From Candidatus Methylomirabilia bacterium (GTDB lineage Bacteria; Methylomirabilota; Methylomirabilia; Rokubacteriales; CSP1-6): 64,000 nt of DNA. The translations under genes and the position numbers were made by a program. The stretch lies in assembly GCA_046758965.1 (NCBI GenBank), contig JBHIBG010000003.1, positions 13,829-77,828 of the forward strand, written 5' to 3'. Each line of letters begins with the position of its first letter. The first letter of the stretch is position 1. Below, in pieces: positions 51,433 through 63,612 of this stretch. The notes beneath the pieces were generated by a model. The model searched no databases, was not told the origin of the DNA, and worked only from the letters and a program-made list of their open reading frames with translations.

Positions 51433-51821
51433 ATGAGGGTTGATGGCATTGATCACGTAGTGCTCACGGTGCGCGACATCCGCGTGACCTGTGAGTTCTA
51501 CTCGCGCGTGCTGGGGATGCAAGTGGTCACGGTCGGAGATGGCCGAACCGCGCTCCGGTTCGGGAAGCAGAAGATCAACCTTCACCAAGCAGGGAGAGAG
51601 TTCCAGCCGAAGGCCCTACACCCCACGCCGGGGTCGGGAGACATCTGCTTCATCACCGAGATCCCGCTGGAGCGCGTGAGGGAGCACATGAGGTCATGCG
51701 GAGTGGAGATCGTGGAAGGCCCCGTGAGGAGAACGGGAGCCCGGGGGCCGCTCGAATCGATCTACGTGCGCGATCCAGACGACAACTTGATCGAAATTTC
51801 GAACGTTCGAGAGGCGACGGC

Positions 51822-51825
<4 letters not shown>
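51433..51825 (+). CDS. VOC family protein (glyoxalase/bleomycin resistance/dioxygenase fold)
   Basis: 130-aa protein. The N-terminal [11 protein letters not shown] is typical of the VOC beta-alpha-beta-beta-beta module. Confidence 0.75.
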
Positions 51826-53219
<1,394 letters not shown>

Positions 53220-53229
53220 GGCCCTCCGC

Positions 53230-53267
53230 CTCTTCCACCTCCCCGTCCCACTCGATGGCGATGCCGC
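53230..53267. repeat. ~38-bp direct repeat, copy 1 (duplicate of osmC 3' end)
   Basis: ctcttccacctccccgtcccactcgatggcgatgccgc at ~53230 matches ~58269-58306 (osmC codons GIAIEWDGEVEE, antisense) with 1 mismatch. Confidence 0.75.
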
Positions 53268-53510
53268 AAGGTCCTCAGGCCGGGCGCGCAGGCGCTTCCC
53301 CCCCTAGATGATTCTGCTCTTCTGCCGCCTTCCCGCCTCTGCTAGCATGCTGATGGGCGTGGGACTGACCGGGCTACATGCCAGTGGTCACGCTCGAAGA
53401 GAGAGAGGATTCCTCTGGCGCTTTACCTCGGTGATCGGTTCGAGCTCCCTGTCACGCGTGAGGCGTGGCAATCGGGACACATTCCGCTCAATGGGGGATT
53501 CTGCCTCCTC

Positions 53511-55499
53511 GTGGATGCCACGGGCGAGCCCATCCCCGTGACCCTGAGGGCAGAGTCGGGGCAATCCGCCGTGGGGGTGTGGGATGGTGGGGGCGGGGTG
53601 CTTGACGTGCCAGGGTTGCGCGAGCTGGTCTTGATCACGGGCGCCTCAGGGCGACTCACGCTCCAAGTCGAGGAGGTCAAGGCCCCTACCTTCAGGGTTG
53701 GCCGTGAGGGCCGGACCCACGAGGACGACCCCGTGGATTTCTCCCCCAGAGAAATCGGCAGGGTTCCCGTGAGGTTTGATCCGCACGACGTGGAGATCCT
53801 CTCGGAGCTCGCGGAAGGGGCGCACGCCCCTCTGGAAGTCTACCAGCTCAACCGGTGGGCCCACACGATCGCCCTCACCCCCGGATTTGAGGAGCTGATC
53901 TCCCTTGCGTCCCTCAGGGAGGTGATCCCGTACGAGCACCAGCTCGCCGCCGTGAAGACTGTCCTCAACCGCATGCGAGGGCGGGCCCTGCTGGCTGACG
54001 AGGTAGGGCTGGGAAAGACCGTGGAGGCGGGGCTGATCCTCTCGGAGCTGCTGCGCAGGCGGCTGGCCCGCCGCGTGCTGGTCCTGGTGCCGCCCGGATT
54101 GGTGACCCAGTGGCAGGAGGAACTGCGTCGGAAGTTCTACCTCGACTTCGTGACCCACGACGCCGAGCCGTTCCGGCAGGAAGGCCCCGAGGCCTGGAAA
54201 CGGTTTGAGCGCGTGGTGGCCTCGTTTCACACCGCCAAGCGGCCGGAGCACGCCCGGGTGATCCTCCAGATCCCCTACGACCTGGTGATCGTGGACGAGG
54301 CCCATCACCTGAGAAACGCCCGCACGGTCCTCTGGCAGTTCGTCAATGTGCTGAGGAAAACCTATCTCCTCCTCCTCACCGCCACGCCGGCGCAAAACGA
54401 TCTGGAGGAGCTGTTCAACCTGGTGACGCTCCTGCAGCCGGGGCAGCTCAAGACTCTCAGGGCGTTTCGCCGGGATCATGTGGCCCGGGGCGACAAGCGC
54501 CAGCCGCGAGATCCGGAGGGCTTGAGGCGCCTGCTCTCCGAGGTCATGGTGAGGAACCGGCGGGCCACCACCCCGGTGGCGCTCACGCGCCGGGTTGCCC
54601 GGACCGTCATCGTTGAGCCGACCGCCGCCGAGCAGGAGCTGTACGTCGGGCTCTCCGACTTCCTTCGGGAGCACTACCGGCGGGGATCCGGAATCACCCG
54701 GATGATGGTGCAGACCCTTCAGATGGAGTTGGGTTCCAGCCCCCGGGCCGCCGCCCTCACTCTGGAGCGGCTCCTCTCCCAGCAGTGGGAGCTGTCGGTC
54801 CGCGACGGGCTGCACCGCTTCCTGGAACACGCCCGGAACATCGTCGACGATGCCAAGAGCCGGGCTCTCCTGGGTCTTCTCCGATCGTGGAGCGACAAGC
54901 TCCTGATCTTCACTCGCTTTCGTGCTACACAGGAGCACCTGGCCCGCCTCCTGCGGGAGACGGGGGAGCCATGCGCCCTCTATCACGGGGGCTTGCCCCG
55001 GCTGGAGAAGGAGGAGGTGGTCCGGGCCTTTGAGGGCCCCTGCCGGGTCCTGATCTCCACGGAGGCCGGCGGCGAGGGGCGCAATCTCCAATTCGCGCAT
55101 GGCCTTGTGAACTACGACCTGCCCTGGAACCCCATGCGGATCGAGCAGCGGATCGGCCGCCTCTCTCGGGTCGGGCAGACCCGGGACGTCTACGTGTTCA
55201 ACCTGGTGGCCCGTGGGACCATCGAGGAGACCCTCCTGGAGATCCTCGACGCCAAGATCAACATGTTCGAGCTGGTGATCGGAGAGATCGACATGATCCT
55301 CGGGCAGCTCGCCACCGACCAGGACTTTGAGGAGTTGGTCACGGACCTGTGGCTCACCTCCGAGGACCGCGAGGCCTTCCGCGTGAAGATGGAGTCCTTC
55401 GGGGAGCAGCTCCTCAGGGCCAAGCAGGCCTACCTCGGGATCAGGGAGCTTGAGGACCGGATCTTCGGTGACGCGCTGGCGCCCGGAGGGGGCGCGTGA
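53511..55499 (+). CDS. SNF2-family (DEAD/DEAH-like) helicase/ATPase with unique ~130-aa N-terminal domain
   Basis: Walker A ADEVGLGKT. Motif II is DLVIVDEAHHLRN, motif III is LLLTATP, and the helicase-C region is YDLPWNPMRIEQRIGRLSRVGQ. Alternative start codon at 53511. Confidence 0.8.
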   Translation: MDATGEPIPVTLRAESGQSAVGVWDGGGGVLDVPGLRELVLITGASGRLTLQVEEVKAPTFRVGREGRTHEDDPVDFSPREIGRVPVRFDPHDVEILSELAEGAHAPLEVYQLNRWAHTIALTPGFEELISLASLREVIPYEHQLAAVKTVLNRMRGRALLADEVGLGKTVEAGLILSELLRRRLARRVLVLVPPGLVTQWQEELRRKFYLDFVTHDAEPFRQEGPEAWKRFERVVASFHTAKRPEHARVILQIPYDLVIVDEAHHLRNARTVLWQFVNVLRKTYLLLLTATPAQNDLEELFNLVTLLQPGQLKTLRAFRRDHVARGDKRQPRDPEGLRRLLSEVMVRNRRATTPVALTRRVARTVIVEPTAAEQELYVGLSDFLREHYRRGSGITRMMVQTLQMELGSSPRAAALTLERLLSQQWELSVRDGLHRFLEHARNIVDDAKSRALLGLLRSWSDKLLIFTRFRATQEHLARLLRETGEPCALYHGGLPRLEKEEVVRAFEGPCRVLISTEAGGEGRNLQFAHGLVNYDLPWNPMRIEQRIGRLSRVGQTRDVYVFNLVARGTIEETLLEILDAKINMFELVIGEIDMILGQLATDQDFEELVTDLWLTSEDREAFRVKMESFGEQLLRAKQAYLGIRELEDRIFGDALAPGGGA

Positions 55500-56563
55500 G
55501 GCCGCCCGGCGGGATCGAGGCGTTTACCCTCACGGCGATCGAGCGCCTGGGTGGCGCGGTCGAGAAGCAGGCCGACGGGCTCTACACCTTCCTCTGGCCG
55601 GCCGAGGCTACGGGAGAGCTAGAGACCCCTCAGCTCGCTTTCGATCCTGAGGTGATCGATGAGGAGCCGGGCGCCGAGCTGGTCACGTTCGCCAGCCCCA
55701 TACTGGAGGAGATCGTCCAGCTTGCCACGGCCTCCGGTCGGGTCGCCCGGGCTTTCCTGAACGCGATTGCGAGCGCTTCGCGCGGAACGGCCGAGCGGCT
55801 GGCGTGGTCGTATCGTTTCCTCGACGCTTCCTGGACGGCCGAAGCCGGAAGGGCGTGGTGGCTCCCGGTGGGGCTCTTCCTGTTCCGAGCCCGGTATCTG
55901 TCCGATTCCCGAGAGGAGGATCTGGTGGAGGTGGCCATGAACCTGGCCGACGGGCGCATCCTCCGGCGCCTGGCCGAGGCGATCGAGCGCTATGGGCTCT
56001 CTCCCGATCCCCCGGAGGCCTGGCCGATGATGGCGGAGCTGCCAGCCAGCCAGGCCTACACGGTGGCGCGGACCGAGCTGGAGCGGAAGATTCTCTCGCC
56101 CCTCGGCCGGCGGCGTCGGGAGCTGGAGTCAAGGCTCGCGCGCGAGAGCGGACGGGCCGGGGCGTACTACGAGGAGCTGATCCGAGAACTCGAGGAGCAA
56201 CAGAAGAGCCTTCCCGCCGATGATCCCGGGCGAGCACCGCTGCAGTCGAAGCTGAGGGCCATTCGCCTTGAGCGCGAAGGCCGGCTCGCTGAGCTCCGGG
56301 GTAAGTACAAACTGGAGGCGGAGGTGGCGCTGCTGAGCGTCCTTCGTCTCTATCTGCCCCGGGTGGTCTTCCCGGGGAGGCTCACGGGGAAGCGCCAGGC
56401 GGCCGAGCTCACGCTGGTCTGGGACCCGGTGGAACAGGCCGGAGAGCCGGCCCCCTGTCGGCGCTGCCGAGGGCTCACCTACGAGATGGGTCTCCTTCGC
56501 TCCGGGGCGGTTGGCTGTCTCCCTTGCCTCGACGCAGAGGCCAACCAGCAAGGCAGGAGGTAA
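55496..56563 (+). CDS. hypothetical protein, coiled-coil with C-terminal CxxC-x16-CxxC zinc ribbon
   Basis: The GTG start overlaps the helicase stop (GTGA), implying co-translation. A Glu/Arg-rich predicted coiled-coil occupies the middle. The C-terminus reads PCRRCRG...CLPCL. Confidence 0.6.
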   Translation: MRPPGGIEAFTLTAIERLGGAVEKQADGLYTFLWPAEATGELETPQLAFDPEVIDEEPGAELVTFASPILEEIVQLATASGRVARAFLNAIASASRGTAERLAWSYRFLDASWTAEAGRAWWLPVGLFLFRARYLSDSREEDLVEVAMNLADGRILRRLAEAIERYGLSPDPPEAWPMMAELPASQAYTVARTELERKILSPLGRRRRELESRLARESGRAGAYYEELIRELEEQQKSLPADDPGRAPLQSKLRAIRLEREGRLAELRGKYKLEAEVALLSVLRLYLPRVVFPGRLTGKRQAAELTLVWDPVEQAGEPAPCRRCRGLTYEMGLLRSGAVGCLPCLDAEANQQGRR

Positions 56564-56699
56564 CAGCGACAGTAGCGAGCCGCTCCATGGACAAGAAGAG
56601 ACGCGAGGCCGAATGGGCCGAGGCAAAGCGCCGATGTCGCCTGAATGCCGAGACCCTGCAGATGGCGAAGGAGCTGCGGCTCAACCCACGAACGGAAAG

Positions 56700-57272
56700 C
56701 TGACCGCCTGGCCGCTCACTTCATCATCGACTTTTCCCGAAATCAGATAGTGGTTCGAGGCGGTAAGGGCAACAAGGACCGCTATACGATGCTTCCCGCA
56801 GCAGTCAAAGAACTCCTGCTGCAGCACCTCCAGGCGGTCAAACGCCGGCACGACGATGACCTCAAGCGCGGCCTCGGCCGGGTCGGCTTGCCCAACGCCC
56901 TCGAACGCAAATACCCAAACGCGGGGAAAGCACGGGGATGGCAGTGGCCGCTTCCCGCCTCAAGCCATTACACCGATCGGGTGACGGGAGAACGGCGCCG
57001 CCACCACATCCACGAATCGGTTCTCCAGAGGGCGATTAAAGAGGCCAGGCTCAAAGCCGGCATTGTGAAGCCAGCCAGCTCCCACACGTTGCGGCATTCC
57101 TTCGCCACTCGCCTGCTCGAGCATGGTTACGAACCCTGACCGTCCAGGAGCTCCTGGGCCACAGCGATGTCAGCACAACGATGATCTACACCCATGTTTT
57201 GAACCGGGGCGGCAGAGGAGTTCGCAGCCCGGCGGATGCGCTGACCATGGCGGTCAATCCGTCGCAGCCATA
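56700..57272 (+). pseudogene. intI: integron integrase (IntI) remnant, 5'-truncated and frameshifted
   Basis: QIVVRGGKGNKDRY and the IntI-specific insertion LPNALERKYPNAGKARGWQWPLPA...RRHHIHE...[21 protein letters not shown] are present. A frameshift near 57137 then continues in another frame as [31 protein letters not shown]. The N-terminal ~170 aa are absent. Confidence 0.75.
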
Positions 57273-57501
57273 AGGGGATTATGCTGACCATCGTCGCGGT
57301 GTTTGTCGGCGTCCGTGCTTTTGGAGAGGTTTGACAACGCATTGGAAACACGAGAGAATCGCCGCCGCTCGGTAGAGTTGCGAATAGGGGATGCGATCAC
57401 CATACTCAATAGTTAGCCGTCGCGCATTGATCGTCTAGCACGTTCGTGGTACGGTTCGGGTATCCTGAGCGTGCTGCGTAGCGGCAGCGTGGAGGGCATC
57501 G

Positions 57502-57684
57502 ATGTCAGGGAGCACCGCCAAGCAGAGGGTCCTCGAGGCGATCGAGAAGCTGCCAGCCGACGCCACGCTGGAAGATGCCATAGAGCGCCTCGTCTTCTTG
57601 GCGAAGATCGAGCGGGGGCTGGCGGAGCTGGACGCCGGCAAAGGCGTCGAGCACACCGAGGCTAAGCGCCGACTCGTCCGGTGA
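57502..57684 (+). CDS. putative addiction-module antitoxin (TIGR02574-like small antitoxin)
   Basis: 60-aa protein (AKQRVLEAIEKLPADATLEDAIERLVFLAKIERGLAELDAGKGV), immediately followed by a RelE/ParE-like reading frame. Confidence 0.65.
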   Translation: MSGSTAKQRVLEAIEKLPADATLEDAIERLVFLAKIERGLAELDAGKGVEHTEAKRRLVR

Positions 57685-57901
57685 CCCGGGTCATCTGGGC
57701 ACCCCAGGCCATCAGCGTATCGTCGGCGCGGTGACCCGACTTGAGAGCTTCCCTCGTTCCGGGCGAGTGGTACTAGAGGTTGGTGACGAGTCCCTCCGCG
57801 AGATCGTCCACGGCAGCTACCGAATCGTGTACCGGCTCAAGTCGGGGGTCGTCGAGGTTGTCACAGTGTTTCACGGTGCCCGGTTGTTTCGGCTCGACTG
57901 A
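57681..57901 (+). pseudogene. RelE/ParE-family toxin, internally deleted and frameshifted
   Basis: The N-terminal peptide VTRVIWAPQAISV stops at 57734. A second frame encodes the C-terminal RLESFPRSGRVVLEVGDESLREIVHGSYRIVYRLKSGVVEVVTVFHGAR. The middle of the toxin is missing. Confidence 0.6.
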
Positions 57902-57917
57902 AGCAGCGGTGGTGAGC

Positions 57918-57989
57918 GTCTAACTTCCCGATGAACCCGCCGCCGGCTCCGCCTCGCTTCGCCGCCGCGGGTTATCGCGAGCGTTAGCC
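57918..57989 (+). repeat. attC-like imperfect inverted repeat (candidate integron cassette recombination site)
   Basis: GTCTAAC (R''-like) ... aacccgccgccggc / gccgccgcgggtt (internal inverted repeat) ... GTTAGCC (R'-like). The whole span is ~72 bp and sits directly 3' of the toxin remnant. A second GTTAGCC occurs at ~57412. Confidence 0.3.
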
Positions 57990-58012
57990 CGCCGAAGTAA
58001 CACGTAGACGCA

Positions 58013-58260
58013 ATGAAAGGCTTATTCCACCTGAAGAGCGCCAAGGACCTCCTCGCCAAGCTGCGCCATGACTTCGAGCGCCTTCAGCGCGACCCTGTCG
58101 ACGCTTATGCTGCCTTCGACTTCCGCGTGACCGCGAGACATCTACCGGAATGGCTCTATCCGGGCGACCCTAGAAAGCAGGACGTGCCGTTCCAGAATAA
58201 CCTTATTCTTCAGGTCTGCCGGCAGATCGCTGATGGCGCCAAGCATATCTATGCTCCAGG
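58013..58260 (+). CDS. hypothetical protein, probably 3'-truncated
   Basis: The first ~80 codons (MKGLFHLKSAKDLLAKLRHDFERLQRDPVDAYAAFDFRVTARHLPEWLYPGDPRKQDVPFQNNLILQVCRQIADGAKHIY) look protein-like. The ORF then runs antisense into osmC with Pro/Arg-rich nonsense. Confidence 0.3.
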
Positions 58261-58262
58261 CG

Positions 58263-58727
58263 CTACTCCTCCTCCACCTCCCCGTCCCACTCGATGGCGA
58301 TGCCGCGTTGGACAGACTGTGCAGCCGGGCAGCCTTTTTCGTGAACCTCGATGGCCCGGAGAGTCTCCTCGCGCTTGCCCTTGGGAACCTTGACCTTGTA
58401 GTGCACCTTGATCTTCGTGATCAGCGGCTTGCCGTCCACGTTCTCGATGACTCCCTCGACTTCGGAGGACAGGCGGTCGGGCTGGCTCGGGATCTTCCGC
58501 GCTGCTAGCGCCCCGGCTAGCGTGCCGGTCATTCACCCCGCCACCGCGGCGATGACATGGTCAAGCGTGGTAGGCAGCTCCTCCTCCGGCTCGACGCCGT
58601 AGAACTTCTTGATCCCCCCGTGGACGCCGTATCGCACCGGCTCGGGGAAGGCCTCGATGTAGGCCCGGCGAACCGGCCCCTTGTCTTTGATGATCTTCAC
58701 CCTGGAAATGTGAATCAGCTCACCCAT
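58263..58727 (-). CDS. osmC: OsmC/Ohr-family peroxiredoxin with in-frame TGA at the peroxidatic Cys position (candidate selenoprotein, or nonsense-mutated pseudogene)
   Basis: Two adjacent ORFs, 58533..58727 (...LDHVIAAVAG) and 58263..58532 (MTGTLAGALAARK...HEKGCPAAQSV...), are separated only by a TGA at 58533-58535. Aligned to OsmC (LIGAAHAAC*FSMALS ... AKAGCPVSQ), the TGA falls exactly at the Cys59-equivalent codon. The second Cys is conserved. Confidence 0.6.
58269..58306. repeat. ~38-bp direct repeat, copy 2 (native osmC 3' end)
   Basis: Same sequence as copy 1. The two copies bracket a ~5.0-kb segment (helicase operon, intI remnant, TA cassette, truncated ORF). Confidence 0.75.
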
Positions 58728-58843
58728 AGCTGCTCCTCCTTGTGCCGCCTCGTCAACGCAGGCTTACTGGATCGTGATCCGTCACGCAGCACTATACTCG
58801 CCGGAGACCCAACGCGCTATTGTACAGGAAACCTCCCGGAGGC

Positions 58844-59854
58844 ATGGCTCGCTTGAGGTTCGAAGAGCTGAAGCGGTTCCTCGAGCGGTCGGCCGTGGCG
58901 GCCCACGCCCCCGACCGCGTGACGATGAGAGAGCGCTACCGCGGGGTCCTGGTGGGCGTGGCGGCCGGCAATGCGCTGGGCCTGGGCGTCGAGGGGTGGT
59001 CACGCAGGCTGATCGAGGCGCGGTTCCCCAACGGCGTGAGGGAGGCAGACGCCGCGGAGCGCGAGCGCCCCTGGGATGACGATCTGGCCCAGACCGCGAT
59101 CCTGGGGGAGGCCCTGCTGGCCGGGGAGGAGCTGACGCCTGAGGATCTGGCCTCGCGCCTTCTCCGCTGGGCGTACGACAACGGCCGCGGCATGGGGAAC
59201 CTGAGCTGGCGCGTACTCTCGGAGCTGGCTTCGGGAACGCCGCCAGCGGTCGCCTCTCGCCGGGTCTGGGAGCGGGACGGCCGCGCCCCGGCGGGCAACG
59301 GAGCCGTCATGCGGTGCGCTCCGGTCGCGCTCCGGTGGCGGACGTCCGGTCACCGGCTGGTGGAAGAGACGGCAACGAGCGCGCTTGTGACTCACTACGA
59401 TCCCCGCTGCGTCTGGTCCGCCGTAGCCTTGAACGTCGCGCTCGCCCTGTCCCTCGGCGGAGCCACTCCGGACCTGGAGGAGCTGGCGACAGCGCTGGAC
59501 CGCGCCGGCGCACCGGTCGAGGTGGGCGCGGCGATTCGATTCGTGCGGGGGCGCGCTCTCCCCGAGCTGCTCCTCGATCACCGCGCCGATATGGGATACA
59601 CGCTCAAGGCCATGCAGGTGGGGCTCTGGTCGCTGCAGCAGGAGCTTGATTTTGAGGAGGTGCTGGTTCGCGTGGTGAACGCCGGAGGAGATACCGACAC
59701 CAACGGCGCCGTGGCGGGAGCGGTCATGGGGAGCCGGGTCGGGGTTTCCGGCATCCCATCCCGTTGGGTGGCGAACATTCGGGAGGCCGGCCACCTGCTG
59801 GATCTGGCGGACCGCCTCTTTGAGGCGTGTGAGGGCGCGGGGGCTACCGGATGA
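58844..59854 (+). CDS. ADP-ribosylglycohydrolase family protein
   Basis: ARH fold markers are present. The C-terminal GDTDTNGAVAGAVMG matches the DraG/ARH metal-site motif. The start is probably MARLRFEEL at 58844. Confidence 0.8.
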   Translation: MARLRFEELKRFLERSAVAAHAPDRVTMRERYRGVLVGVAAGNALGLGVEGWSRRLIEARFPNGVREADAAERERPWDDDLAQTAILGEALLAGEELTPEDLASRLLRWAYDNGRGMGNLSWRVLSELASGTPPAVASRRVWERDGRAPAGNGAVMRCAPVALRWRTSGHRLVEETATSALVTHYDPRCVWSAVALNVALALSLGGATPDLEELATALDRAGAPVEVGAAIRFVRGRALPELLLDHRADMGYTLKAMQVGLWSLQQELDFEEVLVRVVNAGGDTDTNGAVAGAVMGSRVGVSGIPSRWVANIREAGHLLDLADRLFEACEGAGATG

Positions 59855-59973
59855 CGAACTCGAGCCGACGATGCGCCTGGCGCGGGGCTGCGTCGACTTC
59901 CCCGGGGCTCTCGGCTCTCGCAACGATGAACCCGAGGTACTGCCAGCCCTCCGGAGGCGGCACCAGCTCCTGG
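59791..59973. repeat. ~183-bp direct repeat, copy 1 (3' end of ARH gene plus duplicated 3' fragment of ATP-grasp gene)
   Basis: ccacctgctggatctggcggaccgcctc...ggaggcggcaccagctcctg is ~95% identical to 62330..62513. It contains the antisense coding sequence for ...PPPEGWQYLGFIVARAESPGEVDAAPRQAHRRLEFVIR*. Confidence 0.8.
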
Positions 59974-59974
59974 C

Positions 59975-60490
59975 GAGCTGGGCGTGACCGCGATCCTGCA
60001 CACCTAGGATCAGAACCTCTCCCAGCACATCCATGTGCACTGCGTCGTGACGGGCGGGGCCCTCTCGTCCGACGGCGCGCGCTGGATCCGGGCCTGGGCC
60101 GGCTTTCTATTTCCGGTCGGGACCCTGTTCAAGGTGCTCCGGGGAACCTGCCTCGCCGGCCCCGCGGCCTTCACCGCCTGGCTCGACCGCCTCCGCCACC
60201 AGGCCTGGGTGGTGTACTGCAAACAGCCTTTTGGCGGTCCCGAGCAGGTGCTCGCCTACCTCGCCGCTACACCCACCGCGTGGCGATCTCCAACGAGCCC
60301 CTTGTCAAGCTCCAAGACGGGATGGTGCGCCCCCGCTGGCGCGACTACGCCGACGGCGACCGGGTGAAGGTCCTCGAGCTCGAGGCGGCGGAGTTCATCC
60401 GGCGCTTTCTGCTCCACGTCGTTCCGGACGGCTTCGTGCGCATCCGCCACTTTGGCCTCCTGGCCAACCGTACGCGCCCCGTGTTCCGCT
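59975..60490 (+). mobile_element. IS91-family (Y2 HUH rolling-circle) transposase remnant: 5'-truncated, nonsense plus frameshift
   Basis: ...GVTAILHT*DQNLSQHIHVHCVVTGGALSSDGARW...WVVYCKQPFGGPEQVLAYL[frameshift]RRYTHRVAISNEPLVKLQDGMVRPRWRDYADGDRVKVLELEAAEFIRRFLLHVVPDGFVRIRHFGLLA. The conserved ILHTW shows TGG->TAG. A 1-nt deletion lies before RYTHRVAISN. The remnant begins right at the repeat boundary. Confidence 0.7.
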
Positions 60491-60624
60491 CCCGCCCAGC
60501 TTGTAGCATACCCCCGCCGGGGATAGAATCCCCCTATGGCCCCAGGGGCCCCGGTTCAGTACAACTGGTTTTATCCGTCAAGCTGCTGCACGACGGATAA
60601 AAGCCTCAGTGTTAGAGGAGCAAC

Positions 60625-61068
60625 GTGAAGAGAAAGGTGACGCGCAGGGGCACGCAAGACATCTGCCTCGCGGCGATCGTTGGTGCAGACGTATACCGCG
60701 TTTGGACTGACATGCTGCAGTATCTCGTGCCACAGGGGCGGACGCATCGGCTTGCTCCTCTTGTTGCAGGGATGCTACGGTTTGCGGCGGAGCGCGCGTT
60801 TCGTAAACACCGTGGGCGTCCGCCGAAGGGATCGCTTGCAGAGGCGCTGGTCTTCGCGGACGAGTTCGAGGAGGACGAAGAGGACGCACCGGATCTCGGC
60901 ACGACCCCGCCGGGACCCGCGCGGACATTACTGTCGGCGGCTACGGTTCGGCTTTTCCGCGACGCGAAGGTCAAGTACATCCGGACGAGCGCGCGGGGGG
61001 GCAGATACAGCATTGTCGATTCCGCACTTGCGGAATACCACCACTGGTTCGCGATGCCATGGGAATAG
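60625..61068 (+). CDS. hypothetical protein
   Basis: 147-aa ORF inside the inserted segment with an acidic stretch (EFEEDEEDAPD). No recognisable domain. Confidence 0.3.
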   Translation: MKRKVTRRGTQDICLAAIVGADVYRVWTDMLQYLVPQGRTHRLAPLVAGMLRFAAERAFRKHRGRPPKGSLAEALVFADEFEEDEEDAPDLGTTPPGPARTLLSAATVRLFRDAKVKYIRTSARGGRYSIVDSALAEYHHWFAMPWE

Positions 61069-61287
61069 CTCACGCTCTGAACGCCCGCGCGCGGACTAAC
61101 ATGTGCATACACCTGCCGGCCGGCCGATGGGCTTCGACAGCCGCCCGCCTCGCCTCCAGGCCCGCCGCAGGTGATGCCGGCGTTAGACTGGTGGACGTGC
61201 TGCGACTCCGCCTTGGCGTCGCGCAACATTGGCACCATGCGCGCTGCGATGGTTCCGGCCCGCCGCCGATGGGTGTAAGATGTCCGG

Positions 61288-61527
61288 GTGAGTCCGACAG
61301 TCTTTCGCCAGAGGGGTTTTCGCTTCTACTTCTTCTCGCGCGAAGAGCCCCGCTTGCATGTCCACGTGCATCACGCGGACGGAGAAGCGAAGTTCTGGCT
61401 TGAGCCCGAGATCGAGCTGGCGCAGAACTACGGCCTTGGCCCTCGCAGGCTAGCCACCGCTCTCGATCTCATCCGGAGGCATGACCATGAGATCCGCACT
61501 GCGTGGAAGAAGCATTTCGGAGGTTGA
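61288..61527 (+). CDS. DUF4160 family protein
   Basis: MSPTVFRQRGFRFYFFSREEPRLHVHVHHADGEAKFWLEPEIELAQNYG is the typical DUF4160 N-terminal signature. Confidence 0.6.
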   Translation: MSPTVFRQRGFRFYFFSREEPRLHVHVHHADGEAKFWLEPEIELAQNYGLGPRRLATALDLIRRHDHEIRTAWKKHFGG

Positions 61528-61828
61528 AGTCACCAACGTGTCGCAGCATGGGTTCTGGCTTCTCGTAGGCGGCCGTGAGCTCTTCCTGCCCTTCGAGAAG
61601 TTCCCCTGGTTCAAGCGTGCGCCGGTCGGTCAGCTCCTGAGAGTCGAGCAGCCGCATCCCATGCATCTGTATTGGCCTGACCTTGACGTAGATCTGGCCG
61701 TCGAGTCGATCGAGTTCCCGGAACGTTTCCCTCTAGTGAGTCGAGCACGGCCTAGCAACGCGCTCCAGCGGCCGCGCACGAGGCGGGCTCCTGGCAAGGG
61801 GAAAAGGGGTCGCCGCGCGCGCCGCTGA
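61481..61828 (+). CDS. DUF2442 family protein (partner of DUF4160)
   Basis: EVEVTNVSQHGFWLLVGGRELFLPFEKFPWFKRAPVGQLLRVEQ...LYWPDLDVDLAVESI. It overlaps the DUF4160 gene. The start is uncertain: 61481 or 61487. Confidence 0.6.
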   Translation: MTMRSALRGRSISEVEVTNVSQHGFWLLVGGRELFLPFEKFPWFKRAPVGQLLRVEQPHPMHLYWPDLDVDLAVESIEFPERFPLVSRARPSNALQRPRTRRAPGKGKRGRRARR

Positions 61829-62329
61829 GCTTGCTCGCGGCTTCGCCACACAAGCTCGCTCAGCGGCTTAACCGCGACGCCGTTCCCATGAGCCTTGGGC
61901 TCACCTGTGCGTCATGAAAATGGCCTTGGCCATGGGGTTCCGCGGCTTTAACAGGATTTCAGGCAGTTACAGCTCTATTTTCTAAGCAGGTTCCTGACTC
62001 GCAAATTGAGAGCGCAGGCAACAGAACAGGCATTCTCAGGCCTTCTGGAGGGACGGCCAGGGCACCCCCCAAGGTACCGGACCAAGGCACGGGGCGGATG
62101 AAAAGCCTGTCAGGGCGAAAAGCTGACGACGGGTGGAGGCACCCGACGGCGAGAGGTGGGCCCGGCCCCGTCGGTGGACGCGCCACGAGCGTGGCGGCGG
62201 CATCTGCACGACGGAGCGCGGCGGAGGGCTAGGCTAGGTCCGAGCAGCTCGGTCAGGAGGCATATGGGAGAAGAGGTCACGGGGGTGGACAGCAGGCCTT
62301 GCAAGAGGGCCGGGCCTTCGCGCGGGGGA

Positions 62330-62513
62330 CCACCTGCTGGATCTGGCGGACCGCCTCCTTGAGGCGTGCGAGGGCGGGGGGGCTACCGGATGACGAACTC
62401 GAGCCGACGATGCGCCTGGCGCAGGGCTGCGTCGACTTCCCCGGGGCTCTCGGCTCTCGCAAAGATGAACCCGAGGTACTGCCAGCCCTCCGGAGGCGGC
62501 ATCAGCTCCTGCC
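62330..62513. repeat. ~183-bp direct repeat, copy 2 (native 3' end of ATP-grasp gene plus duplicated 3' fragment of ARH gene)
   Basis: Contains ...HLLDLADRLLEACEGGGATG* (an ARH C-terminal fragment, plus strand) and the authentic ATP-grasp C-terminus on the minus strand. Confidence 0.8.
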
Positions 62514-63612
62514 CGAGGTGGGCCGTGATGGCAACCTCCTCGATCCCCGGCACCCGCCGGGCCGCCTCCAGGCCCCGGACCTCCTCGAGCACCCCCCGCC
62601 GGGGAATCGGGATCATCATCACACCCGCGGAGCGGCGCTCGCGCTCCAGCGAGGCGACCTCCTTCCCCAGAGCATGGTAGAGGATCAGCTCTTCGAGCGA
62701 CAGGCCCGTGCCGAAGCGGAGAGCGCGGGAGCAGAGGCCGCCGATGGAGCGGGCGGCGATCTCGATCATCCAGGGGCCCCGGTCGTTCACGCGAAGCTCG
62801 GCGTGAACCGGCCCCTCCCAGAGCCCCAGCGCTGTGGCGGCCCGCGCGCTGCAGTCGATCACCGCCGCCTGGCGCTCAGCCGACAGACGCGAGGGCGTGA
62901 GGTAAATCGTCTCCTCAAAGAACGGGCCGTCAAGGGGATCGGGCTTGTCAAACAGCGCCAGGACGTGAAGCTCCCCCTTCATGAGGAGCCCTTCGAGGGC
63001 CACCTCCACCCCCGGCACGAACTCCTCCACGAGCACCTGGCGGGCCTCCCCGCCCACGGCGGCGACCTCCGCACTCCGGAGAATCGCCTCGAGCCGGCGG
63101 AAGGCGGCAACGAACTGATCAGGGCCGTCGGCACGGATCACCCCGCGGCTCGCCGCGAGGATCGTGGGCTTGACCACGCAGGGATAGGCGACCTGCTCCG
63201 CAACAGCCGTCGGGTCATCCTCGAGAGAGAAGAGCGTGTGGCGGGGCACCGGCACCCCAGCCTGCTGGAGGAGCCGCCGCATCGTGAACTTGTTGCGCGC
63301 GGCCTGCGCCGACTCGACGGAGTTGAACGGCAACCCCAGCGCCTCGGCCGCGGCGGCGGCGACCACCGTCGTCAGATCGTCGACCGGGACGACGCCATCA
63401 ATGGGGTGCTGCGTGGCGAACTCCGCCACCTCACGAGCGGCCTTCGCAGGGTCACGGAAGTCAAGCGTCAGGAGGCGGTCCGGATTCCGCTCTTGAAACG
63501 AGCTCGCATGCTCCGAGGCCACGACGACCTCTACGCCGAGCGCGTCGGCCGCTTTGACGAATGCCTCCGTCCGATAGGTCGTGGTCGGGATCAGCAGGAG
63601 CAGCCGGGGCAT
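62383..63612 (-). CDS. ATP-grasp domain protein (carboxylate-amine ligase-like)
   Basis: 409-aa protein with a pre-ATP-grasp domain and an ATP-grasp domain (YPCVVKP ... EEFVPGVEVALEGLL ... PVHAELRVNDRGPWMIEIAARSIGG). Confidence 0.8.
   Translation of the reverse strand: MPRLLLLIPTTTYRTEAFVKAADALGVEVVVASEHASSFQERNPDRLLTLDFRDPAKAAREVAEFATQHPIDGVVPVDDLTTVVAAAAAEALGLPFNSVESAQAARNKFTMRRLLQQAGVPVPRHTLFSLEDDPTAVAEQVAYPCVVKPTILAASRGVIRADGPDQFVAAFRRLEAILRSAEVAAVGGEARQVLVEEFVPGVEVALEGLLMKGELHVLALFDKPDPLDGPFFEETIYLTPSRLSAERQAAVIDCSARAATALGLWEGPVHAELRVNDRGPWMIEIAARSIGGLCSRALRFGTGLSLEELILYHALGKEVASLERERRSAGVMMIPIPRRGVLEEVRGLEAARRVPGIEEVAITAHLGQELMPPPEGWQYLGFIFARAESPGEVDAALRQAHRRLEFVIR

Follow-up and report, generated by a model that had tools for sequence, protein, structure and literature searches.

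A decayed integron fragment between duplicated 3' ends of two convergent genes in a Candidatus Methylomirabilia bacterium

Introduction

Insertion sequences (IS) of the IS91 family, such as IS91, IS801 and IS1294, encode a Y2/HUH transposase and are bounded by terIS and oriIS ends with subterminal palindromes. They make no target duplication and their transposition starts at oriIS, beside a target tetranucleotide (GTTN); when termination fails, DNA beyond terIS is carried along (PMC13181058). In complex class 1 integrons, a copy of the 3' conserved segment (3'-CS), ISCR1 without terIS, oriIS, the captured genes and a second, partial 3'-CS follow each other in this order (PMC3575428). Here we describe a locus of comparable layout in a 64,000-nucleotide stretch of DNA (the window) from a Candidatus Methylomirabilia bacterium (GenBank assembly GCA_046758965.1, contig JBHIBG010000003.1, positions 13,829 to 77,828), where a 2,357-bp insert carrying a dead IS91-family remnant and integron cassettes lies between convergent ADP-ribosylglycohydrolase (ARH) and ATP-grasp genes and is flanked by a 182-bp direct duplication of the junction of these genes.

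Duplicated gene ends are also known from integrated elements: for e14 and phage 21 in E. coli icd, the duplicated stretch of the gene 3' end amounts to about 165 bp. The window resembles these cases in having an imperfect repeat of 100-200 bp from a gene 3' end, an intact gene and a displaced pseudo-3'-end, but its insert lacks an integrase and consists of integron scrap rather than a coherent element. In addition, mobile elements such as the IS1111-attC group and the group IIC-attC introns are found at or beside the recombination sites (attC) of integron cassettes, and the IS91-like ISShvi3 adjoins attC in Shewanella integrons (PMC9229058).

Results

Duplication of the ARH/ATP-grasp junction

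The insert at 59973-62329 is flanked by a 182-bp direct repeat, with copy 1 at 59791-59972 and copy 2 at 62330-62511 (spacing 2,539 bp). Six positions (59819, 59830, 59838, 59884, 59924 and 59963) distinguish the copies, which are 96.7% identical; a chance origin is ruled out. The duplication described in an initial annotation of the window is real, with its length of 183 bp and identity of about 95% revised to 182 bp and about 97% (6 differences). Each copy contains, as that annotation had stated, the 3' ends of both genes, namely the terminal 64 nt of the ARH gene and the terminal 129 nt of the ATP-grasp gene. The stop codons of both genes were found in each copy, with those of ARH at 59852-59854 (copy 1) and 62391-62393 (copy 2) and those of ATP-grasp at 59844-59846 (copy 1) and 62383-62385 (copy 2). 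The two genes are convergent, with their 3' ends sharing about 11 nt.

Both genes are intact. The ARH gene (58844-59854, plus strand) is complete through copy 1 and matches the whole profile of Pfam PF03747 (E=1.4e-58); the C-terminus of its product aligns with homologues, and an NCBI metagenome-assembled genome (MAG) of a Candidatus Methylomirabilia bacterium has an identical annotated protein on a 117-kb contig. Exact look-ups of the ATP-grasp protein, a NifU-like protein and a 344-aa form of ARH returned no record. The ATP-grasp or L-amino-acid-ligase-like gene (62383-63612, minus strand; Pfam ATP-grasp_4, LAL_C2 and ATPgrasp_N) is complete through copy 2, and its product has full-length matches to 80 homologues. 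The remaining halves of the repeats are displaced pseudo-fragments, consisting of the stop and 42 codons of ATP-grasp at 59844-59972 (minus strand) and the 3' end of ARH at 62330-62393.

An insert-free form of the junction was observed in a relative. A Logan contig from the sister sample SRR29324608 (L086) encodes ARH and ATP-grasp proteins with 73% and 80% amino acid identity, respectively, where the genes are convergent and only 2 bp apart. The DNA of this contig aligns to the window up to 59972 and again from 62333 onwards. The proposal that the two genes were originally convergent with abutting 3' ends is thus upheld by an uninterrupted junction and by an alignment which breaks at the insert edges. 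ARH was not found beside the ATP-grasp homologue in any of 80 species-representative genomes, which yielded no empty site and indicate that this gene neighbourhood is specific to the lineage.

The displaced ATP-grasp fragment carries the changes F384V and L397P at residues which are F in 76 and L in 78 of 81 homologues, whereas the functional copy has V371M alone, a conservative change. When the six differences were polarised with L086 as the outgroup, the derived states were mixed between both copies, and the conservation of residues told more about their history. Changes at near-invariant residues in the displaced fragment, set against one conservative change in the functional copy, fit copies that would have been identical at formation and then drifted apart by 3.3% as the fragments decayed.

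Support for the assembly

Because the source is a MAG, we considered whether the contig could be a chimera which joins two strains, each genome having a single 182-bp copy. The copies differ by single-nucleotide polymorphisms (SNPs), as strain variants would, and the left junction lacks independent recovery. However, Logan contigs (k=31) from three sister runs (SRR29324601, SRR29324602 and SRR29324603) are 100% identical to 58277-59868, 60333-62407 and 61003-62399 and cover the passage from ARH to copy 1 and that from the cargo to copy 2. Two of these contigs terminate exactly 30 nt past a copy-specific SNP (59838 and 62377), at the start of the shared 31-mers, which is how a de Bruijn graph behaves when both repeat copies occur in the sample. 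Furthermore, no copy-specific SNP is more than 46 nt from the next, with 59963C 10 nt from the IS junction, so that single short reads link them and a chimeric join is unlikely. The changes at invariant residues in the displaced fragments would also be unexpected for a functional allele from another strain, and we find a chimera hardly credible. A separate observation concerns the third contig (L084, from SRR29324602, corresponding to 61003-62399), which ends 30 nt after the SNP at 62369 and not after 62377; this points to a third repeat haplotype in that sample, which is probably a variant of copy 1 that has G at 59838.

The IS91-family remnant

The 2,357-bp insert is composed of 641 bp of dead IS and 1,716 bp of DNA that once adjoined this IS. 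The evidence largely establishes it as a dead fragment of an integron cassette array with an IS91-type remnant attached. No further copy of the insert was found within the window, including the region to the left of ARH, and neither its open reading frames (ORFs) nor Pfam searches revealed a recombinase or integrase gene in 59973-62329.

The IS91-family remnant (59973-60613, plus strand) was recognised by Pfam Y2_Tnp, by protein alignment and by a conserved terminal block. It retains residues ~110-300 of a transposase of 320-400 aa and matches positions 19-179 of the 183 in the Y2_Tnp profile, split over two frames, while the ~110 N-terminal residues and the Zn_Tnp_IS91 domain are gone. These results agree with the initial annotation, in which the insert begins directly inside an IS91-like tnpA that lacks its 5' part and shows a W-to-stop change in ILHTW and a 1-nt deletion. 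The stop is a TAG at 60005-60007, following ILHT, and the -1 frameshift lies near 60260. Two further deletions in the tnpA region and a retained tnpA-distal end were not part of that description; tnpA has a 21-codon gap near 60155 and has lost its C-terminal tail, and about 385 bp are deleted after 60480, between the tnpA remnant and the terminal block. The nearest full-length transposases are at most 68% identical in amino acid sequence. A plasmid search, in which the tnpA part was the sole match, returned annotated IS91 transposases on rhizobial plasmids with 69-71% nucleotide identity.

The oriIS-type end is intact, with palindromes at 60519-60533 and 60569-60579/60592-60602 and a terminus at 60610-60613. 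The non-coding block at 60519-60613 is conserved in the ENA locus L089 and in seven metagenome loci. In all nine oriIS ends the similarity ceases right after ...CGGATAAAAGCCTNNNN GTT (...CCTNNNN GTT), beyond which the flanks diverge. The window has GTTAGAG directly after the IS end (60611-60617, plus strand), which holds the target tetranucleotide GTTA (T at position 2) and matches the integron core GTTRRRY at six of seven positions.

A complete element of this subgroup is about 2.5 kb long (L089, 1886-4409), with the order terIS, tyrosine-recombinase gene, tnpA and oriIS; 641 bp of such an element are left here. The same layout of recombinase and tnpA is annotated on Bradyrhizobium plasmids (e.g. 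NZ_CP088102.1). The terIS motif of the subgroup, GTTGAACTAAACCGCTGACGCGGTAG, was observed in L089, L115 and L165 and begins with GTTG. This motif is absent from the window with up to 3 mismatches allowed, and the tyrosine-recombinase gene of the element is absent from the window too.

Removal of the IS from L165 restores a perfect 95-nt attC, where the IS is located 5' of GTTAGGC, and other copies of this IS adjoin GTTAGAC and GTTGGGC. A truncated integron integrase gene is found immediately upstream of the IS in L089 and L115. Within the window, GTTAGAG stands where the core of the preceding recombination site is expected, and the start codon of the 147-aa cassette ORF described below follows 7 nt further on. 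It is largely established that the IS91 element had inserted in front of the 147-aa cassette, at an integron recombination site whose GTT core it directly precedes. We noticed copies of the ~2.5-kb subgroup at GTTRRRY-like cores in L089, L115, L165, L168, L110, L182, L185, L187 and the window. In L089 and L110 the oriIS terminus is partly duplicated in tandem.

The subgroup shares its Y2/HUH transposase, its terIS and oriIS ends with subterminal palindromes, the GTTN beside oriIS and the lack of target duplication with IS91, IS801 and IS1294. It differs from the family at large in being found repeatedly against the GTTRRRY cores of attC and attI, and its representative in the window differs in being a 641-bp remnant whose nearest transposases are so distant. 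The recombinase-carrying subgroup may insert specifically at the GTT core of attC/attI sites, judging by nine flanks and one reconstructed attC. It would thereby join the attC-associated elements introduced above, from which the window copy differs in its transposase family and in its insertion point, 5' of the GTT of R'.

Integron cassettes in the insert

The initial annotation had listed a 147-aa ORF and a DUF4160/DUF2442 gene pair in the insert, and both are present there; the insert proteins are MFQ5896964-66. The 147-aa ORF (60625-61068, plus strand; NCBI MFQ5896964.1) has 155 cluster representatives at E<=1e-3, forms a 90% identity cluster with itself as the single member and has no Pfam, NCBIfam or PHROG match. 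It is followed on the same strand by an attC of 95 nt (61094-61188; GACTAAC...GTTAGAC), which was located by an attC scan and folds into a long hairpin. The attC sites were called with our own simple scan instead of IntegronFinder, and four positive controls (L210 and L212-L214) gave the expected sites. As an example, P0241, a homologue with 56% identity to the 147-aa protein, has a 99-nt attC (GCCTAAC...GTTAGGC) on both sides in L212, L213 and L214, and the arms of the attC at 61094-61188 are homologous to those of the sites around P0241. An ORF followed by an attC with complementary R''/R' sequences of the form RYYYAAC...GTTRRRY and with L''/L' arms was found for 61094-61188 and, in the neighbouring insertion, for 57918-57989.

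The second cassette (61197-61830, plus strand) is a toxin-antitoxin cassette, in which Pfam identifies DUF4160 (61288-61527) and DUF2442 (61481-61828). It is 93.2% identical over 634 ungapped nt to a cassette in L210, which is part of a different array. Its attC (~61750-61830) lacks the final 13 nt including R', and the complete site is seen at 1064-1157 of L210. L210 (NCBI JASDBD010051856.1) is itself a 2-kb contig that resembles a cassette array, where the DUF4160/DUF2442 cassette is followed by SnoaL-like and HigB-like ORFs and attC sites are found at 446-503 and 1064-1157. Like DhiT/DhiA, the toxin-antitoxin pair combines these two Pfam families in this order and its genes overlap, here on an integron cassette. 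However, the DUF4160 protein scores 16.9 bits against the toxin_DhiT model of NCBIfam, where the cut-off is 100, and is not that equivalog.

The last 499 bp of the insert (61831-62329) are without assignment. A 10-bp inverted repeat (61821-61830/61858-61867) lies at the break point, and the hairpin at 61821-61867 was rejected as an attC since its R''/R' order is wrong. Scans of 59500-62800 with Rfam (E<=1) and for tRNA gave no match, and Pfam scans of small ORFs and alternative frames in 61831-62329 gave none either. The initial annotation had regarded 61860-62330 as non-coding DNA of lower GC content; no coding, Rfam or tRNA signal was indeed found in 61831-62329, but the low GC content (0.57-0.60) is confined to ~61800-62100, whereas 62100-62330 has a GC content of 0.70 with a strong purine skew. 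Over 62000-62330 the plus strand was observed to be purine-rich, with a GC skew of up to +0.26 and an AT skew of up to +0.43 at a GC content of 0.69-0.70.

A second insertion nearby

A second direct repeat, of 49 nt, is found at 53219-53267 and 58258-58306, where 45 of the 49 positions are identical and 34 nt form an exact core. It duplicates the 3' end of an OsmC-like gene, beside the stop of an ORF at 51696-53219, and flanks 4,990 bp (53268-58257). Taken together, the 49-nt and 182-bp cases represent two adjacent insertions of integron debris, each with a flanking duplication of a convergent-gene junction.

The second insertion includes an integron integrase (intI) pseudogene at 56645-57136 and 57139-57270 (plus strand; positions 143-277 and 281-315 of the 315 in TIGR02249), which is truncated at its 5' end, carries one frameshift and shares 62-68% identity with the truncated intI that accompanies the IS91 element of L089. 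Downstream of it on the same strand, 57502-57989 is an integron toxin-antitoxin cassette with a small antitoxin-like ORF (57502-57684, plus strand), a ParE toxin ORF (57731-57901, plus strand) that matches only the C-terminal part of the Pfam profile, and a 72-nt attC (57918-57989, plus strand; attC scan). A truncated cassette ORF was also found within 53268-58257. The order and orientation across both insertions, with intI upstream of IS91, are those seen in L089 and L115. There is no complete integron, as the dead intI is separated from the insert at 59973-62329 by the OsmC-like and ARH genes.

In the left part of the same insertion (53511-56563), a gene for a SNF2-family helicase of 662 aa overlaps with a 355-aa ORF downstream, which has no Pfam match; these two could form a defence or mobile-element module. 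The OsmC-like gene (58263-58727, minus strand) has one in-frame TGA at 58530-58532, and the OsmC Pfam domain (residues 51-147) spans this site when it is read as Cys. The TGA may be a selenocysteine codon or mark a pseudogene.

Discussion

IS91 transposition did not make the 182-bp duplication, because terIS is missing, the transposase is dead, the family makes no target-site duplication and the cargo is on the oriIS side. A transposition target-site duplication was likewise rejected on account of its 182 bp and of a family that makes none (PMC13181058), as the initial annotation had argued. That annotation offered two other routes. One-ended IS91 transposition followed by repair is not supported, given that the cargo lies beyond oriIS, terIS is absent and the left edge of the repeat begins with CCAC, unlike the termination tetranucleotide of the family, GTTN (GTTG at terIS). 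Cargo beyond oriIS matches only the circle version of the one-ended model, with which the cargo start, GTTA, is compatible. Insertion via recombination may apply in a general sense.

We tentatively explain the locus by an illegitimate, template-switch-like insertion with re-copying of the target, an explanation that falls a little short of being probable. An illegitimate event other than transposition would have copied or ligated an integron block into the region where the 3' ends of the ARH and ATP-grasp genes overlap. Synthesis would leave the chromosome at 59972 during replication or repair template switching, copy 2,357 bp of ectopic integron DNA beginning inside tnpA and return 182 bp behind its departure point; an identical product would result if a widely staggered break were filled in. 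The IS91 element would be a passenger and not the agent. Since the 182 bp would be re-copied, both genes stay full length, and the event would therefore be tolerated. The copies would then drift by 3.3%, and the adjacent 5-kb insertion with its 49-bp repeat, dead intI and ParE cassette might derive from the same event or from the same source integron.

The junctions are consistent with such an origin in part. The break points on the donor side (tnpA codon ~110, the unassigned DNA and the truncated attC at 61830) are arbitrary, with none at an element end. The left junction has patchy microhomology between GCGAGCTGGGCGTGA in the IS and CCCGAGGTGGGCCGTGA in the ATP-grasp gene (p ~0.013 against random windows). 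Template-switch insertions by fork stalling and template switching or microhomology-mediated break-induced replication (FoSTeS/MMBIR) are documented mainly in eukaryotes, and the likeness lies in ectopic DNA flanked by re-copied target, arbitrary break points, microhomology and a possible complex event of two insertions; the difference is that the process in the window is one that we infer.

Several points weigh against a template-switch origin. The right junction has no significant microhomology, and we infer template switching from the anatomy of the locus alone. To our knowledge, target duplications of 100-200 bp by illegitimate recombination form no well-documented class in bacteria. The search for a source of the cargo found none, and among 15 billion proteins no relative of the 147-aa protein reaches 90% identity. 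No second assembly with the left junction (59972/59973) was found, as a protein search with the 249-aa ORF that spans it gave only IS91 homologues. In addition, the layout is identical to that of ISCR1 complex class 1 integrons, which is explained by circle integration via homologous recombination.

The complex class 1 integrons lead to another explanation, an ISCR1-like capture in which a circle carrying a copy of the ARH/ATP-grasp junction, a complete IS91 element and cassettes would arise by aberrant rolling-circle (one-ended) replication from oriIS and integrate in Campbell fashion, duplicating the junction. A later microhomology-mediated deletion would then have taken away terIS and the recombinase gene together with the 5' third of tnpA, and copy 1 may once have been longer and lost a part in the same way. 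All five parts of the locus match complex class 1 integrons in order and orientation (PMC3575428; model in PMC7707992), the likeness extending to the partial direct duplication of host DNA around an IS91-family element without terIS, to the oriIS end against the captured genes and to the involvement of integron sequences. The precise, intact oriIS end and microhomology confined to the left junction, which would fit a secondary deletion, favour this route as well, and a donor allele could account for the 3.3% by which the copies differ. However, the changes at invariant residues in the displaced ATP-grasp fragment must be post-integration in any case, and the route takes no fewer than four events, one of which, an earlier joining of the cargo to the 182 bp, is unexplained. 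The repeat edge CCAC is not like a GTTN termination site or that of rolling-circle termination, the neighbouring island with the 49-bp repeat is left unexplained, and neither circle nor donor was seen. Differences from the ISCR1 systems are also found in the IS, which is dead with only a quarter left, in the duplication of a chromosomal convergent-gene junction instead of the 3'-CS, in captured DNA that itself consists of integron cassettes, and in the host, an uncultivated Methylomirabilia bacterium, with no resistance genes involved. We regard ISCR1-like capture as a serious rival, if a somewhat unlikely one.

Site-specific integration at gene 3' ends would account for both restored target genes and for mobile-type cargo (an IS and a toxin-antitoxin pair) between direct repeats, the repeats being attL and attR of a larger integrative element that brought a replacement copy of its target, as e14 and phage 21 do in icd, and whose integrase and most other parts were later deleted. 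The neighbouring island, with its 49-bp repeat at the OsmC-like 3' end and a recombinase pseudogene, might be taken in the same sense, but that recombinase is an integron integrase (TIGR02249) and not an island integrase. The insert has no integrase, its left edge lies inside tnpA and the repeat edges show neither inverted repeats nor a recognisable core, which make such an eroded element distinctly unlikely. A large tandem duplication, running from the repeat start through ATP-grasp to a downstream IS91-cassette locus and followed by a deletion from the end of copy 1 to mid-tnpA, appears very unlikely. Duplication followed by deletion is common in bacteria, would yield exactly two novel joints and fits microhomology at the deletion joint; however, there is no second copy of the insert within the window, no paralogue of the 147-aa or DUF2442 protein with at least 90% identity occurs in a collection that includes this MAG, and Logan contigs pass from the cargo into copy 2 unbranched.

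Returning to template switching, it is unlikely, as a wider form of this explanation, that both insertions (53268-58257 and 59973-62329) stem from one multi-step event which copied collinear pieces of a single integron, with the recombinase-carrying IS91 subgroup perhaps targeting the GTT core of attC/attI. The pieces on either side of the OsmC-like and ARH genes would then be intI with the ParE cassette and IS91 with the 147-aa ORF and toxin-antitoxin cassettes.

The locus is a decayed scar of mobile DNA of a known general kind and fairly ordinary, and for the biology of the host the insert is probably neutral debris. Together with the empty site, it indicates that two overlapping convergent genes can be spared by a non-transpositional insertion that duplicates 182 bp of its target. 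Although its host belongs to an uncultivated, non-clinical lineage, the locus is built like the ISCR1 complex class 1 integrons. The analysis also defines the two ends of an IS91 subgroup with tyrosine-recombinase and tnpA genes and suggests insertion at attC/attI cores, which is relevant to integron dynamics. If both insertions did arise in a single event, they would provide a bacterial example of a complex templated insertion, and if the subgroup does target attC/attI sites, it could serve environmental bacteria as an ISCR-like vehicle for cassette-array pieces.

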